Positions 1,485 through 7,010 of a stretch of DNA of 64,000 nucleotides are shown in pieces; positions within the stretch are counted from its first letter, which is position 1; each line of letters opens with the position of its first letter. The stretch is from a virus, in the IMG/VR virus record IMGVR_UViG_3300008110_000025, positions 1-64,000 of that record, one strand, 5' to 3'. Below the pieces are notes generated by a model, which saw only the letters and a program-made list of their open reading frames with translations, was not told where the DNA came from and ran no database searches. The translations under genes and the position numbers were made by a program.

Positions 1485-3392
1485 TTACTTACTCCACACT
1501 TTAGTTATTGATGTCTCTGCTTTTAGTAGTCCGTTACGTATGATTTTATTAGCAGCTCTCTCCATCTCCTCAGTCATATAGATCTTCCATTCCTCTGCAA
1601 AATACTCAGGGCAAATGGTGTCTATCTGATCGTGAACAGTCATTACTATCTTAACAGGATAATTATGTTTCTTGATTCTTTTATAAAGATATACAAGTGC
1701 TAATTTAGTCATATCTGCTGAACTACCCTGAATTGGGGTATTCTTAGATGCTCTCTCAATAGATCCAAGCTCCATAAAGCTGTCTCTATCTCCGTACATT
1801 TTTGGGGTCCAGCTGTCAAACCATCTCTTCCTATAGAATGGGAAGAACGTAGTAACAAACCCGTACCTCTTTCCAAACTCTCCCTGATCCTCAAGGAATC
1901 TTTTAATAGCAGGGAAAGCTTTGAAATACTTATCAATCAAATCCTTTGCTTCAGTCATTGAACAGTTAATAGTCTCACTAAGTTTCTTAGGCCCCATTCC
2001 ATAAGCCAATCCAAAGTTGATTGTCTTAACCTGTGTCCTAAGCTTCTTGTGTTCCTTGCATTCACACTTCTGTGTATACTGATAGTAAGTACAACCATCT
2101 TCTGCTGCATTCTTCCACACTGGTCCGAATACTAACTCAGCACATACAGAGTGTAAGTCTTCATTATTACGTAGTGACTTGAGGAATACAGGATCTCCAG
2201 AACCGTAAGCAATTACATTCAACTCTTGGCTTGAGTAATCAGAGGATACAAACACCCATCCATGTGGAGCAACAAAACAATTACGATACTCATTAGTTGC
2301 TGGTATCTGTTGCATATTAGGTTCACTAGATGACACACGACCTGTGTCTAGTATCTGTTGAAAGTTAGTATGCACCTTACCATCACAACTAATGTAGCTG
2401 TTAAAGTTTGTTCCAAATGCTGATGCTAGTTTACTCTTCTCCTTGTACTTGATGTACTCATCAATCAATGGATGCTTATAACGATAAGGAGCTAGCTTCT
2501 TACCATTTACATCCTCAATCTTAGGGAATAAAGTCTGGAATATCTTAAGCACTTGGCTTGGGCTGTCCCAGTTAACTGTTGAATCCTTTAACTCTGACTC
2601 ATCTAAGAATAAGTCTAGTTGTTTCTTCGCTCTGTACATTTCGAACTCTGAATAGGATAAAAGGCTCGTGTCTAATTGTTTCCCTAAAAGGAAACTTTCT
2701 TGCTTATTCCTATCAGCTAGCTTCTTCCATTGAATGGTGTCAATCTCTAGCCCATTGTACTCAATCTCAGAGAATACAACAACAGCTTGATTCTCGAGTT
2801 TAGCTACATTGCTTAGAGTCTGAAGTTGTAATAGATCTACTTGTTGAAAGTAAATGTCTATTAGATACTCAACGTCCTTAGCACCATAGATAATTTGAGA
2901 GTCATCAAATGGAGTTGATGATGTTTGAGTAAACCTATTACGCACAGACTTATCTAACTCTTTATCAAGATATCTCTTGACAAGCTTAGCCAGTCCAAAT
3001 CCGTAATCAGTTTTCCCACAGTGTAAAATCTTTTCGCATAGGTATGTATCATGAATGTTTACAGTATCTATCTTAAGATAATGCTTAATGAACTTGTAAT
3101 CAAACTTTGCATTGTGGAATACTTTTACGATATCCTCATTGTTTAATACTCTGTTCAATTGCACCTGATCTGCATAAGTTAGATCTCTACAATCAATTAC
3201 ATACTGACGCTCTGCATCACCGATTTGCAGCATAAGTAGTTTCTTACATGTAAAATCAAATCCTTCTGTCTCTGTATCTACGCCTAATACCTTACTGGTT
3301 AGTAGATCTTCAACAGCTTCTTCAATTGTACATGATTTAAAACTACTCGCTATCAGTGCTTGGTTCTTGCTGATAAAGAAAATGTTGTTCAT
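1485..3392 (-). CDS. polA: DNA polymerase family A (3'-5' exonuclease + polymerase domains)
   Basis: ExoI DTET, ExoII HNAKFD, ExoIII YGAKD; TGRVSSSEPNMQQIP; motif A DYSSQEL; motif B RTQVKTINFGLAYG; NTPIQGSSAD; motif C VHDQ. Start placed at MNNIFF (the track starts at 3407). Confidence 0.96.
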   Translation of the reverse strand: MNNIFFISKNQALIASSFKSCTIEEAVEDLLTSKVLGVDTETEGFDFTCKKLLMLQIGDAERQYVIDCRDLTYADQVQLNRVLNNEDIVKVFHNAKFDYKFIKHYLKIDTVNIHDTYLCEKILHCGKTDYGFGLAKLVKRYLDKELDKSVRNRFTQTSSTPFDDSQIIYGAKDVEYLIDIYFQQVDLLQLQTLSNVAKLENQAVVVFSEIEYNGLEIDTIQWKKLADRNKQESFLLGKQLDTSLLSYSEFEMYRAKKQLDLFLDESELKDSTVNWDSPSQVLKIFQTLFPKIEDVNGKKLAPYRYKHPLIDEYIKYKEKSKLASAFGTNFNSYISCDGKVHTNFQQILDTGRVSSSEPNMQQIPATNEYRNCFVAPHGWVFVSSDYSSQELNVIAYGSGDPVFLKSLRNNEDLHSVCAELVFGPVWKNAAEDGCTYYQYTQKCECKEHKKLRTQVKTINFGLAYGMGPKKLSETINCSMTEAKDLIDKYFKAFPAIKRFLEDQGEFGKRYGFVTTFFPFYRKRWFDSWTPKMYGDRDSFMELGSIERASKNTPIQGSSADMTKLALVYLYKRIKKHNYPVKIVMTVHDQIDTICPEYFAEEWKIYMTEEMERAANKIIRNGLLKAETSITKVWSK

Positions 3393-3576
3393 GTTGTTGT
3401 TGTGCAATTTTGTGGTAAATATAAGCCATCACATTGGCAGCAAATTCTACGTCATATGATGCATTACCAAACTGGAAGTGTTTCTCTCCACGTTCAGCAG
3501 CCATCATAGCTTGTAGTTCAAAGGCTTGATAAGTCCCAGACTCCATCAAGTCAAATACTAATTTCATTCTCGACAT
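3343..3576 (-). CDS. hypothetical protein (probable start MSRMKLVF)
   Basis: ATG at 3576 preceded by an A-rich leader; the track's upstream extension to 3678 runs through a structured noncoding element. Confidence 0.7.
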   Translation of the reverse strand: MSRMKLVFDLMESGTYQAFELQAMMAAERGEKHFQFGNASYDVEFAANVMAYIYHKIAQQQHEQHFLYQQEPSTDSE

Positions 3577-3600
3577 ACAGTTATTGATTTTTAATTGTTT

Positions 3601-3730
3601 CGTAACTAGTAACAAACGGACAGTGTCCCTTGTTTTCTCTTGATTATATACCAGAGAACAGACAGCAGGTAACCCCAAACCTGCTATAGTCTATTCAATG
3701 GTTATTCGTAAGTACACAATGATAGGGTTT
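3601..3730 (-). promoter_or_regulatory. structured intergenic RNA element (hairpin with possible pseudoknot)
   Basis: GAATAGAC/GTCTGTTC plus AGCAGGT/ACCTGCT helix; loop GGGGTT is complementary to upstream AACCCT. Confidence 0.45.
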
Positions 3731-3733
3731 TTG

Positions 3734-3814
3734 AAATCAGGATGGGATTCGAACCCATACCTCTGCAAGAGTTCAACGGAACTTGCAGTGCTCTACCAGT
3801 TGAGCTACCTGATT
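3734..3814 (-). ncRNA. tRNA-like RNA (81 nt) with elongated anticodon arm and no 7-nt anticodon loop
   Basis: AATCAGG/CCTGATT acceptor, TA-GCTC-AACTGGTA-GAGC D arm, ATGGG-TTCGAAT-CCCAT T arm; anticodon arm reads CTGCA-AGTTC-CGTT-GAACT-CT-TGCAG. Confidence 0.85.
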
Positions 3815-3827
3815 TACTCAGCTATGA

Positions 3828-4433
3828 TTAGCTGAAGAACGGACTAGAGTCAAAGCTCTTACCAGCAGGAATGCCAGTAGATACGTTTGACTTAACAGCA
3901 TCAGGCTCAAGGAAGTCATGATTAGCTTTGTTAAACACTACACGAGTGTTAGCAAAGATGTACATGCCCTTGTGAGTGATGAAGTCTCCATCTTTACCAC
4001 GACGTTTAGCCGCAGTTTCGATGTTGCTTGCCTGCCAATCTGTAGGAGTTACAGTCTCGAAAACTTCTACTTTCATTGGGAAGGCTTCACCATTGATGTG
4101 AGCTACTGGATTGATGACATTCAATGGGAGAATCTCACGTCCCATTTGGTCAACCTCCCAATCAGCATCATCCATCAGGTTGATGTTGAGATAAACTGAA
4201 GCATCCTTAGCTTCAGCAGTAAGCCAAGCACGACGAGCACCATTACCTTGTGAGAAACGGTCGTCTGACTTGTTAAAGATAGCAAGTGGGTTTGCTGCAG
4301 TAGACTGTGTTTTGACAATCTCAGCAAATTCCAATTGAATCTTACCTCCATTAACCTTACGAGCTTGGAGTAAAAGGGTTTGACCCACTTGCAATCCCTG
4401 CAATGAGCCACTGTTGATTGTGTTGTTCATCAT
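3828..4433 (-). CDS. hypothetical protein, possibly ssDNA-binding
   Basis: 201 aa, codon usage like the highly expressed capsid gene (CGT, GCT, AAC), beta-rich, flexible tail ending DSSPFFS; the SSB role is inference only. Confidence 0.8.
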   Translation of the reverse strand: MMNNTINSGSLQGLQVGQTLLLQARKVNGGKIQLEFAEIVKTQSTAANPLAIFNKSDDRFSQGNGARRAWLTAEAKDASVYLNINLMDDADWEVDQMGREILPLNVINPVAHINGEAFPMKVEVFETVTPTDWQASNIETAAKRRGKDGDFITHKGMYIFANTRVVFNKANHDFLEPDAVKSNVSTGIPAGKSFDSSPFFS

Positions 4434-4473
4434 GATTTTGATGATTAAATAATAAATTAAATGAATGAATTGA

Positions 4474-4536
4474 TTTTACCACTCTGCATTAAAGGGCTTG
4501 TGACCTTCAGTTGTTACACTGGCTGCATTAGTAAAA
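4474..4536 (-). ncRNA. twister ribozyme, type P1
   Basis: UUUUAC-U^AA-UGCA-GC-CAGU(GUAACA)ACUG-AAGG-UCACAAGC-CCUU-UAA-UGCA-GA-GUG-GUAAAA: P1, P2, P3 and P4 helices, both pseudoknots (CAC/GUG, GC/GC) and the conserved UAA, GC, AAGC and GA nucleotides are all present. Confidence 0.9.
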
Positions 4537-4551
4537 GGGGACTAAGCCCCT
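4533..4551 (-). terminator. weak intrinsic terminator-like hairpin overlapping the twister P1
   Basis: AGGGG-CTTAGT-CCCCT-TTT; the stop codon of the upstream gene lies in the loop. Confidence 0.5.
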
Positions 4552-4961
4552 GTAAACATTCTAACTAGATCAGCATGATCGTCATTAGTTTGTGGATCAA
4601 TCTTAGGAAGCTCAGGCATCCCAAGTTGTTTAGCTGAATAGACATAGTGATCTATATAACCCCATCCATTACTTAGATTATATGTAGTCTTTACATATTC
4701 TTCTAAGGCTTTCTCGATATCTCTATCCCAAGCATTATGGAGTTTACGATACTCATGTAATGTCAGACCATCGAGTCTAGGAGTATAGCCCATGTCAAAC
4801 CATGAGCTATATCCTGTACTAACTCGCACTTTCTCAGCAACAAATGTGATGATAGGAAACGGTATTGTTTCTTCTATCTCAACTCTCTTGATGTAGGTAA
4901 GTGTCTTCATATTAGTAGCTGATTCTATCTGATTCATCACCATCGAAATAAGTGCACTCAT
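4542..4961 (-). CDS. hypothetical protein
   Basis: 139-aa ORF; the true start may be the downstream MKTLTY. Confidence 0.7.
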   Translation of the reverse strand: MSALISMVMNQIESATNMKTLTYIKRVEIEETIPFPIITFVAEKVRVSTGYSSWFDMGYTPRLDGLTLHEYRKLHNAWDRDIEKALEEYVKTTYNLSNGWGYIDHYVYSAKQLGMPELPKIDPQTNDDHADLVRMFTGA

Positions 4962-5460
4962 CAGGTGTAACTAACTTGAATAGATAGTGATTACCTTTAG
5001 AAGATATCAAATGGTATGTATTCGGCATGCATGAATTAACAGCAGCTACAACATCCCACCATCTGAGATCACCCCATCTTTCTGCTAACCCACCATACTC
5101 TTCATATGATACTATCTTACCATCAGCAGTAGCTTCGAATACATATGTCTCGCAAGCATCATCACTGATAGATGCAATGATGTATTCTGGTACATTAGGA
5201 CGTTCACGATACTGACGATACTCTGAGTCATCATCTGGATTAGCATCCTCATTGACCATATCAATGAACCACTCAGGTGTAGATTCTTCAGGAATGATGC
5301 ATTCTTCCTCTATTACTTTATACTTAGAGGGATCCATACCTAATCCAATGGAGTGATCTATCTCTGCCCACTCTCCGTGATGATCTTTGTACATCACTGT
5401 CTTGCCTTCAATCCATGCAATATATACAGGGAGAAGTTCTTTAGCTCTTTCTCTTGTCAT
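4912..5460 (-). CDS. hypothetical protein (probable start MTRERAKELLP)
   Basis: ATG at 5460 with an A-rich leader; MTRExAKELLPxxxAWxEGK is a common phage N-terminal segment. Confidence 0.75.
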   Translation of the reverse strand: MTRERAKELLPVYIAWIEGKTVMYKDHHGEWAEIDHSIGLGMDPSKYKVIEEECIIPEESTPEWFIDMVNEDANPDDDSEYRQYRERPNVPEYIIASISDDACETYVFEATADGKIVSYEEYGGLAERWGDLRWWDVVAAVNSCMPNTYHLISSKGNHYLFKLVTPDECTYFDGDESDRISY

Positions 5461-5553
5461 GATTTTATATGTGTTTGTTATTGATTTAAAAGTAAATAAC
5501 GGTTTAAGCCTCACCGTCAAGCCACTATTGTATGAAGTCCAATAGTTAAAGTC

Positions 5554-5748
5554 CTATCTATTCCACCCACAACCACCATTGTCTTGTTTGACAAAGTTGT
5601 GATTGTGTGTAGATCTTAAATGATCTTGATAATAGCTACTTTTATTAGTAGCACAAGATGACATTAGTATTATCACTAGGATAATACCTAAGATAACAAG
5701 TGCAAAGCTTGTTAAATCTTCAGCAAATTTAGTCTTAGTATTTCTCAT
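5554..5748 (-). CDS. putative small lipoprotein
   Basis: Basic N-terminus, hydrophobic stretch, LMSSC lipobox-like motif. Confidence 0.7.
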   Translation of the reverse strand: MRNTKTKFAEDLTSFALVILGIILVIILMSSCATNKSSYYQDHLRSTHNHNFVKQDNGGCGWNR

Positions 5749-5760
5749 AGTGTTATATTA

Positions 5761-6027
5761 TTAGAACTTGAGAGTTTGATTAAGACTAATACGTTTACGT
5801 TCAGCACGTTCTTCCATCTCCATGCTATATACTACAACGTATATGATGGTGATGATTACAGTTGCAAAGCCCATCCCGAATTGATAGTCACCACTCATGA
5901 TATCCATGAAGTAATGATGGAGGTTAAGCATGATTGCTGCATGTAATACAGCAGGAGTAATGAATGTAACGGTAGCAACTACTGCAATCTGAGTAATTAC
6001 TTTGATGAAATTAAGTGTGTAATTCAT
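5761..6027 (-). CDS. membrane protein (2 predicted TM helices)
   Basis: Two long hydrophobic segments in 88 aa. Confidence 0.75.
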   Translation of the reverse strand: MNYTLNFIKVITQIAVVATVTFITPAVLHAAIMLNLHHYFMDIMSGDYQFGMGFATVIITIIYVVVYSMEMEERAERKRISLNQTLKF

Positions 6028-6029
6028 GA

Positions 6030-6064
6030 TGATTTAAGTTATTGATATTGATTTAAGTTATTGA
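6030..6064. repeat. 16-bp direct repeat TGATTTAAGTTATTGA x2 (period 19)
   Basis: Exact copies at 6030-6045 and 6049-6064, just upstream of the start codon at 6027. Confidence 0.8.
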
Positions 6065-6338
6065 ATACAAGAGTAACACTTTAAGCATCAGTGAGAAGCA
6101 GCTATACATATGATACATTTATAGTATGTATTCAATGTGTATTACTATAGGTTATAGCTATACCTTATCTATGCCTATGTTAAGCAAGCATAAGATGATG
6201 AAGTGTGATACCATGTTATATAACTAATTAGATAGTCATCATGATACCACACTTAATGGATGTGAGAGTATTGGCAATCAATCTCTCCAACACACATAAT
6301 AATTTATTAGTAACGAGTAACAACACGAGAATTAAACC

Positions 6339-6368
6339 AAAAAAAGGGGACGAATGTCCCCTCTTTTT
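6339..6368. terminator. bidirectional intrinsic terminator
   Basis: A7-GGGGAC-GAAT-GTCCCC-TC-T5. Confidence 0.85.
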
Positions 6369-6378
6369 AAACGAATGA

Positions 6379-6678
6379 TTACTTCTCTTCGTTTGTGATG
6401 ATGCCCTGTTTACGGGCAGCTTCAACAATCATCTTAAACTTAGGATGTTTGTTGTGAACAAAACGAATCATTTGAGTTTCGTTTGTAAATTGTTCATCGA
6501 GGGATGCAAATCCCACGAATACAACTTTACCGTCAATGACTTCGATTTCATCGTTGTCTTTGAGTACATCACGAGTAGAGAGGATAATACCTGAAAGTTT
6601 ATTCTCCTTGAAACAAAGTGATGCGGAAGCAGCAGCAACCATGTTGCTTGCTTGTTGAACTGGTGTTTTCTTGCTCAT
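6379..6678 (-). CDS. hypothetical protein, first gene of the leftward arm (probable start MSKKTPVQ)
   Basis: ATG at 6678 after an AAACACA leader; followed by its own terminator. Confidence 0.75.
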   Translation of the reverse strand: MSKKTPVQQASNMVAAASASLCFKENKLSGIILSTRDVLKDNDEIEVIDGKVVFVGFASLDEQFTNETQMIRFVHNKHPKFKMIVEAARKQGIITNEEK

Positions 6679-6849
6679 TGTGTTTGAGTTTATGAAGTTT
6701 ACGAATAAATTATTATGGGGGATATACTTATCCTCCAAAACTTAGCGGGGGTCTTTGAATACGTAGGATCTCACTATCAAAAAATTTCCCCAGTTAAAAA
6801 AATTTTATGTCAAGTTTTCTGTGCAGTTAACTCGTAACATTTTTCACAT

Positions 6850-6857
6850 TAGATTTG
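6850..6857 (+). promoter_or_regulatory. Bacteroidota -7 promoter box TAGATTTG
   Basis: Matches TAnnTTTG, 18 nt before the ATG at 6876. Confidence 0.55.
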
Positions 6858-6875
6858 TTACAAAATTCTAACTAA

Positions 6876-7010
6876 ATGGCTAAAGCAAATACAGTTAACT
6901 CGTGGTCCCCAAACCCTAGAAAGAAACGTCCAGGGGTACATTCTAAGAAAAAGTTCTCTAAACTGAAGAGCTCAAAACTTTACAAGAAAGTTAGTAGAGG
7001 TCAAGGATAA
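6876..7010 (+). CDS. small highly basic protein (44 aa, MAKANTVNSWSPNPRKKRPGVHSKKKFSKLKSSKLYKKVSRGQG)
   Basis: Translated by hand; preceded by a promoter box; KKRPGVH...RGQG pattern; missed by the ORF track. Confidence 0.75.
   Translation: MAKANTVNSWSPNPRKKRPGVHSKKKFSKLKSSKLYKKVSRGQG

Follow-up and report, generated by a model that had tools for sequence, protein, structure and literature searches.

A predicted type-P1 twister ribozyme at the head of a replication gene block in a lake-water phage

The twister class of self-cleaving ribozymes is said to go back to Roth et al. in 2014, and twister cleavage leaves 5'-OH and 2',3'-cyclic phosphate ends. In phage T7, early mRNA is cut by host RNase III at processing sites between genes. 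Twisters combine three essential stems with up to three optional ones, P0, P3 and P5, and their cleavage dinucleotide is U-A (PMC5408937); type P1 (RF03160) is represented among crystallised examples by Osa-1-4 and env22 (PMC5408937). Twisters near phage genes have been known since the discovery of the class, processing of polycistronic transcripts has already been suggested as a role for bacterial twisters, and the purpose of bacterial and phage twisters is an open question (PMC6765202). Theta ribozymes, a minimal HDV-like class in gut phages, lie directly beside tRNAs, whose 3' trailers they are proposed to trim (PMC10879173), while the glmS ribozyme in the 5' UTR of glmS mRNA needs a metabolite cofactor and its cleavage leads to decay (PMC6765202).

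The locus described here lies in a stretch of 64,000 nucleotides (hereafter the window), positions 1 to 64,000 of IMG/VR record IMGVR_UViG_3300008110_000025, a complete fresh-water virus genome of 87,687 bp (87.7 kb) with terminal repeats. On the minus strand, 4536..4474 has the full make-up of a type-P1 twister, with P1, P2, P3, P4 and both pseudoknots. It shares with the described members of that type the order of the elements, both pseudoknots, the conserved nucleotides of L1 and L4 and the optional stems P0 and P3. It departs from RF03160 in its lower score, the A-U middle pair of T1, A/U-rich helices, a 4-bp P3 and a shorter post-P4 linker; the defining features of the type are untouched by these departures, which are all common in the phage copies that we collected.

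Like the RNase III sites of T7, it is a structured RNA in a short spacer, presumably of a polycistronic transcript, where a cut would leave a hairpin end upstream and free the downstream message; T7, however, relies on a host protein enzyme and a double-stranded substrate, whereas this RNA is predicted to cut itself and to leave 5'-OH and cyclic-phosphate ends. With theta ribozymes it has in common that a small self-cleaving ribozyme occurs in a tailed phage and may stand in for host RNases in RNA maturation, as has been proposed for theta (PMC10879173), but it is of another class and lies 660 nt upstream of a tRNA-like element, directly before a protein gene. As with glmS, a self-cleaving RNA occupies the leader of a protein-coding message whose fate would be set by a 5'-OH product; unlike glmS, twisters have no known ligand.

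Ribozyme structure and family match

An initial annotation, made from the sequence letters alone, had read this site as a complete type-P1 twister fused to a terminator-like hairpin, and the minus-strand sequence that it quoted is found exactly at 4551..4474. The elements, all on the minus strand, are as follows; CAC/GUG and GC/GC interactions are named T1 and T2 after the published nomenclature (PMC5408937).

4537..4550, minus strand: P0 hairpin, GGGG-CUUAGU-CCCC; 4550-4547 pairs with 4540-4537; flush against P1
4531..4536, minus strand: P1 5' strand UUUUAC; 4536-4531 pairs with 4479-4474, 6 bp
4528..4530, minus strand: loop L1, U-A-A, aligned to the invariant UAA of RF03160; predicted scissile bond U4530/A4529
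4524..4527, minus strand: P2 5' strand UGCA; pairs with 4488-4485, 4 bp
4522..4523, minus strand: L2 dinucleotide GC, the 5' half of T2; G4523-C4496 and C4522-G4497
4508..4521, minus strand: P3 hairpin CAGU-GUAACA-ACUG, an optional stem; 4521-4518 pairs with 4511-4508, 4 bp
4492..4507, minus strand: P4 AAGG/CCUU with loop L4, UCACAAGC; 4507-4504 pairs with 4495-4492
4474..4491, minus strand: ribozyme 3' half, with linker UAA, P2 UGCA (4488-4485), GA, T1 GUG (4482-4480) and P1 GUAAAA (4479-4474)

The claim that four helices and both pseudoknots pair held up in a scripted check, in which all 27 of 27 proposed pairs were canonical (22 nested, four of them in the P0 hairpin, and 5 in the pseudoknots). 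P4 consists of 3 bp plus an extending G-C pair. Loop L4 holds the T1 strand CAC (4502-4500) and the T2 strand GC (4497-4496), and T1 comprises three Watson-Crick pairs, C4502-G4480, A4501-U4481 and C4500-G4482. Crystal structures show an extra G-C and a U/A pair that prolong P4, a bulged GC that makes T2 and an A adjoining the T1 strand (PMC5408937); all have counterparts here. The predicted cleavage site also falls where it had been placed, between 4530 and 4529 at the U-A of the model's site, which puts A4529 96 nt ahead of the ATG (4433-4431).

Against the Rfam twister-P1 model RF03160, 4534..4476 aligns over the full length of the model (positions 1-68) and scores 52.1 bits, with E-values of 9.5e-9 for both strands of the 64-kb window against 4227 families, 3.2e-12 for the genome with this family alone and 3.6e-11 for the local stretch. 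The covariance-model search that had been proposed as a check thus returned a full-length hit, yet one that stays 15 bits under the family's gathering score of 67.2, a curators' threshold rather than a biological feature, and a default Rfam scan of the window lists only tRNAs. Barring paired compensating replacements, the element agrees with the model at the highly conserved positions of the consensus beyond the variable P3 hairpin: the blocks UAA, GCC, GUC-CAAGCC and GAG-G are all present, and the sole difference in the core is the compensated middle pair of T1, so that the reported agreement of the core with the type-P1 consensus is sustained. Differences from the model amount to A-U for C-G in that pair and in two pairs of P4, and to a post-P4 linker that is shorter than the model's but has the same length in other phage twisters. 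The A-U pair in T1 costs score because the model leaves pseudoknots unscored; the two A-U pairs in P4 and the short P3 lower the score further. With the full-length match and the covariation at the same site in relatives described below, the element is almost certainly a real type-P1 twister, as had been claimed, and very probably an active one. It is the sole ribozyme match to Rfam models in the whole 87.7-kb genome.

Energy-based folding of the 78 nt alone recovers the hairpin, P2, P3 and P4. P1 is weak, with five A-U pairs, and in the nearest-neighbour optimum it is shifted by one register with the cleavage-site nucleotides paired. The optimum fold of a 96-nt piece instead pairs the 5' arm of the hairpin with AAGCCCU of L4/P4; we rejected this alternative, which is not conserved in one of the closest relatives (L004) and reaches a z of only -1.25 against shuffles.

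Less straightforward is the nature of the hairpin ahead of P1, for which the initial annotation had proposed an intrinsic terminator whose U-tract doubles as the 5' strand of P1. That the hairpin lies flush against P1 stands; the fused terminator does not fit as well as the known optional stem P0. The stem at 4550-4537 has 4-5 bp and is followed by the tail UUUUACU, and a terminator consensus scan does list it, although the terminator-like site at 6370-6337, with 15 pairs and seven T, is much stronger. In a fold-based test, 38 of 60 unrelated phage twisters have a stable hairpin that stops within 0-1 nt of P1 on its 5' side, as against 10% of background positions. The P1 5' strands behind those 38 hairpins are mostly GC-rich, usually without a U-tract, which argues that the hairpins are not intrinsic terminators. 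Because the stem here spans only 4-5 bp, the supposed U-tract is simply an A/U-rich P1 and the same layout recurs in 38 of 60 cases, the hairpin is better read as P0. In the sister clade (L005 type), by contrast, a separate 7-bp hairpin with a true U-run stands 11-16 nt before P1. By analogy with that hairpin and with those of relatives that lack the twister, 4550-4537 may have some terminator function, alone or alongside its role as P0.

Gene neighbourhood and covariation in related phages

The ribozyme sits in a 108-nt spacer within a leftward early/replication arm, whose genes start at about 6738, extend down to position 1 and carry on at the other end of the record. Four further features, again on the minus strand, frame it.

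4542..4961, minus strand: upstream ORF of 139 aa, from the ORF list; its TAG stop (4544-4542) lies inside the P0 loop
4434..4473, minus strand: leader of 40 nt, A/U-rich, from the ribozyme to the ATG, read from the sequence; similar in relatives
3828..4433, minus strand: downstream gene of 201 aa, conserved; first in a block whose next members are a 111-aa ORF and DNA polymerase A
3733..3814, minus strand: tRNA-like element, 13 nt after the stop of the 201-aa gene; acceptor, D and T arms intact

The earlier placement of the ribozyme in the leader of a replication-arm gene is borne out; the 201-aa gene heads the DNA polymerase block. No Shine-Dalgarno-like motif is present in the leader, and the 139-aa upstream ORF matches no Pfam or PHROG family. 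We considered whether TAG might be recoded, extending this ORF to the TAA at 4478-4476, and rejected the idea: long genes are intact and abut under the standard code, and a suppressor tRNA was sought without success. When 3000-7000 was compared with GenBank phages at the nucleotide level, nothing matched. The nearest named phages by DNA polymerase A are Crassvirales, at about 30% identity, so the phage appears to be distantly related to crAss phages; the crAss-like polymerase and the Atlas taxa weakly indicate Bacteroidota as the likely host phylum. Elsewhere in the same arm, 6337-6370 forms a strong bidirectional terminator-like hairpin (15 pairs, then seven T, on both strands) inside a mechanically called 66-aa ORF, 6428-6228, which for that reason may not be a gene.

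The 201-aa protein has 452 homologues, all unnamed, in fresh-water and marine phage contigs, with a conserved C-terminal tail that reads TGEIFS in most of them. PHROGs and Pfam gave no match, a PDB sequence search and a profile search nothing credible, and the Atlas only unnamed clusters. Its predicted structure is beta-rich (pLDDT 79), and its resemblance to OB-fold or SSB-like proteins is weak: no PDB entry reached E <=0.001 in Foldseek, the only strong match in a viral library is unnamed (with DUF669 and SSB rows at E 0.02-0.06), and a wide structural search reached Z <=3.6 with some OB-fold proteins among the rows. With matches this weak, a single-strand-binding function is no more than a guess. 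A possible kinship to the protein at the equivalent position in phage cr111_1 was examined, and no relation was found.

To judge conservation, we collected loci by way of the downstream 201-aa protein, so that their selection is independent of the RNA. The twister occurs at the same place, with the same distance to the ATG, in every locus whose 201-aa protein is >=71% identical, and it is absent from loci at <=67% identity. In an alignment of eight distinct orthologous copies (A2), 96.6% of cells are paired, as against 29-49% when the partners are slid, and 6 of 22 pairs change on both sides: the outer pair of P1, two pairs in P3, two in P4 and one in T2. The L005 clade has G-C for U-A in the outer pair of P1 and U-G for C-G in the inner one, L004 has changed two P3 pairs and two P4 pairs on both sides, and the T2 pair G-C has become A-U on both sides in L005, L130 and L132. 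In L003, P3 is shortened by one nucleotide on each side, and the P2 strand UGCA is invariant within the clade. These replacements represent one clade and few independent events, but compensatory changes in P1, P3, P4 and T2 argue for selection on the RNA fold itself.

Synteny among the closest relatives ties the ribozyme to what follows it rather than to what precedes it. Three upstream ORFs (139, 202 and 64 aa) are present in L002 and L003 and absent from L004 and L005, whereas all of L002-L005 retain the twister together with the 201-aa gene, the 111-aa gene and DNA polymerase A. Clade members are homologous from the hairpin or from P1 onwards. Because the upstream sequence differs and homology starts there, we regard the ribozyme as part of the downstream block and as a marker of its border with the variable block, which agrees with the earlier proposal that it separates the downstream gene from the upstream early genes.

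The tRNA-like element shows a parallel distribution: it accompanies the twister in most twister-bearing relatives (L002-L005 and L125-L131), and none was found after the 201-aa gene in relatives that lack the twister. Its anticodon arm is over-long, lacks a usable anticodon and is hypervariable, differing in every relative. In L004 only the acceptor-stem sequence is left, closing a plain 15-bp hairpin with a z of -7.3. The over-long variable arm, the reduction in L004 and the absence where there is no twister suggest that the element is a processing signal for RNase P/RNase Z, not a decoding tRNA. A second such tRNA-like element lies elsewhere in the window, at 379-471 on the minus strand.

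Relatives that lack the twister carry other hairpins in the same slot. In L133, L135 and L006 these are long and terminator-like. Among the marine relatives L136-L153 and L007-L010, a hairpin stands some 35-70 nt ahead of the start codon of the gene for the 201-aa homologue (alignment A3), with no twister and no Rfam match. Its stem covaries, 5 of 6 pairs changing on both sides with 98.6% paired, and its conserved loop contains ACCAU, with which an upstream AUGGU can pair; an A/U-rich leader then follows. The AUGGU-loop pairing changes on both sides in L147 and again in L142/L008, so a pseudoknot is possible in the marine hairpin.

Proposed role and alternative explanations

The family match, the pairings, the covariation at orthologous sites and the linkage to the downstream block are observed; self-cleavage, a polycistronic early transcript and an effect of cleavage on RNA stability are what we infer. 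Our preferred reading, with a probability of roughly 0.6 for the statement as a whole, is a functional type-P1 twister with P0 and P3 that would cut a polycistronic early transcript at the border of the two blocks. When transcription reads through from the upstream genes, the ribozyme would fold and cut between U4530 and A4529. The products would be an upstream RNA whose 3' end consists of the P0 hairpin, seven more nucleotides and a 2',3'-cyclic phosphate, and a downstream RNA with its 5'-OH enclosed in the compact ribozyme fold, ahead of the 40-nt A/U-rich leader and the ATG; burial of the 5' end in the fold has been reported for the twister 3' fragment (PMC8782182). The two halves of the transcript would thereafter have separate fates, with no host endonuclease involved. 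The tRNA-like element is probably cut as well, by RNase P or RNase Z, which would excise the message for the 201-aa protein. RNA data from the region are neutral towards this reading: six metatranscriptome runs contain small parts of the stretch, and low-depth contigs from four of them cover parts of both flanking genes, one reaching from 4364 to 4511, but none spans 4530/4529 and the contigs carry no end or strand information. No Bacteroidota-type -7 box was found on the minus strand from 4440 to 5720, and the motif TAnnTTTG is not enriched (65 found against 67 expected).

A different start of the RNA would change this picture. If transcription began just upstream of the hairpin, the ribozyme would merely trim a triphosphate leader of about 21 nt from the primary transcript, and a sigma-70-like site (ATGACG, 16 nt, TAGAAT at 4585-4558 on the minus strand) does stand about 7 nt before the hairpin. 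Promoter-like sites of this kind are, however, no commoner than in shuffled sequence (23 found against 27.7 expected), and L004 and L005 lack this one, their sequence ahead of the hairpin or P1 being unrelated. To our knowledge, moreover, Bacteroidota promoters depart from the sigma-70 consensus, and we consider such a start improbable. Equally improbable, in our analysis, is that an active ribozyme serves to lower expression of the downstream block, its 5'-OH product being a target for a host 5' exonuclease and constitutive cleavage keeping the replication-gene message low. The initial annotation had proposed the opposite effect, that the 5'-OH could stabilise the downstream mRNA against decay that depends on a 5' phosphate; it may, but a 5'-OH end can also mark an RNA for decay, and among bacterial self-cleaving ribozymes the one role that is well understood is the breakdown of cleaved glmS mRNA by cellular RNases (PMC6765202). 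Yet the 3' product here would keep the whole compact fold with the 5' end buried as reported (PMC8782182), and a strongly conserved gene at the head of the DNA polymerase block would be an odd target for permanent down-tuning.

The break in clade homology at the hairpin or P1, together with the differing upstream genes, could also mean that the twister serves chiefly as a cassette joint, or persists as a selfish passenger, at a site where small genes are swapped by recombination, with little effect on the expression of its neighbours; near-identical cores in many unrelated viral contigs, often two per small-gene operon, would suit this. But a role at the level of DNA does not explain compensatory changes in P1, P3, P4 and T2, which point to selection on the RNA fold beyond the DNA sequence, and the single copy offers no repeat for recombination within the genome. 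We find this explanation unlikely as an alternative, and it would in any case be compatible with RNA processing. The score below the Rfam cut-off, the A/U-rich P1 and the short post-P4 linker might finally be taken as signs that the element has decayed, or resembles a twister by chance, and does not cleave. An E-value of 9.5e-9, the retention of the conserved core positions, the compensatory changes at the orthologous site and linkers of equal length in other phage twisters make that highly improbable, and we retain cleavage of a polycistronic early transcript at the block border as the reading to build on.

It can be extended, tentatively and with more doubt than confidence, to a message-excision cassette, in which the ribozyme with P0 would form the mRNA 5' end of the 201-aa gene, the degenerate tRNA-like element would form its 3' end, and a structured 5' slot would be required, possibly as an operator for the gene's own protein. 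Were this so, a single-gene mRNA with two protected ends would be released from a long early transcript. The presence of another structured RNA in the same slot of relatives, the covarying marine hairpin, points to a required structured 5' cap, and if the 201-aa protein binds single-stranded nucleic acid, the slot could act as an operator in the manner of the T4 gene 32 leader. The locus is a clean test case for such ideas: it has one copy in a complete genome, a sharp border between variable and conserved genes, and a tRNA-like element beyond the same gene, while close relatives differ only in compensatory positions and distant ones carry other structured RNAs in the slot.

Twisters across phages

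It is worth placing this copy among its many counterparts. Scanning viral contigs for the conserved twister core with the variable positions left free, we found at least 114 matching contigs (L011-L124), which reduce to 68 distinct ribozymes, 60 of them unrelated to this phage. Near-identical cores recur in many unrelated contigs. The high interest originally attached to the find was thus overrated, given the number of such contigs and the long-known association of twisters with phage genes: the twister of the window is a typical phage twister, previously uncatalogued, and this copy alone changes nothing known about the class. Its A-U middle pair of T1 is the commonest state among the 68 (A-U in 49, C-G in 14, U-A in 2, G-C in 1, unpaired in 2). 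Across the same set, the first four pairs of P1, the outer pair of P2 and the pairs of P4 covary freely; P3 pair counts from the pattern were left unused, its lazy match splitting P3 and P4 wrongly in many sequences.

Rfam scoring of 22 other phage twisters, which have this core in common and covary, placed 20 of them below 67.2, at 38.6-67.0 bits. The RF03160 cut-off therefore misses most of the phage copies scored, and default annotation under-reports phage twisters.

By crude ORF calling, phage twisters lie in short same-strand spacers, where the median distance is 27.5 nt from the preceding stop and 55 nt to the following start, and their neighbours are early or replication genes, including MuB-like, Gam-like, helicase-loader and methyltransferase genes. 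In ten contigs (L015, L016, L019, L027, L035, L050, L078, L083, L092 and L107), two same-strand twisters stand 0.9-3 kb apart around runs of small genes. Neighbours in these two-twister contigs comprise a MuB-like transposition protein, a Gam-like protein, a DnaC-like loader and a DNA methyltransferase, and because of neighbours such as the MuB-like and Gam-like proteins, several of the contigs look like Mu-like phages. In one further contig, L042, a twister is followed on the same strand, after about 50 nt, by a RAGATH-1 hammerhead whose 58.1 bits exceed its cut-off (1158-1234 and 1283-1346, both on the minus strand).
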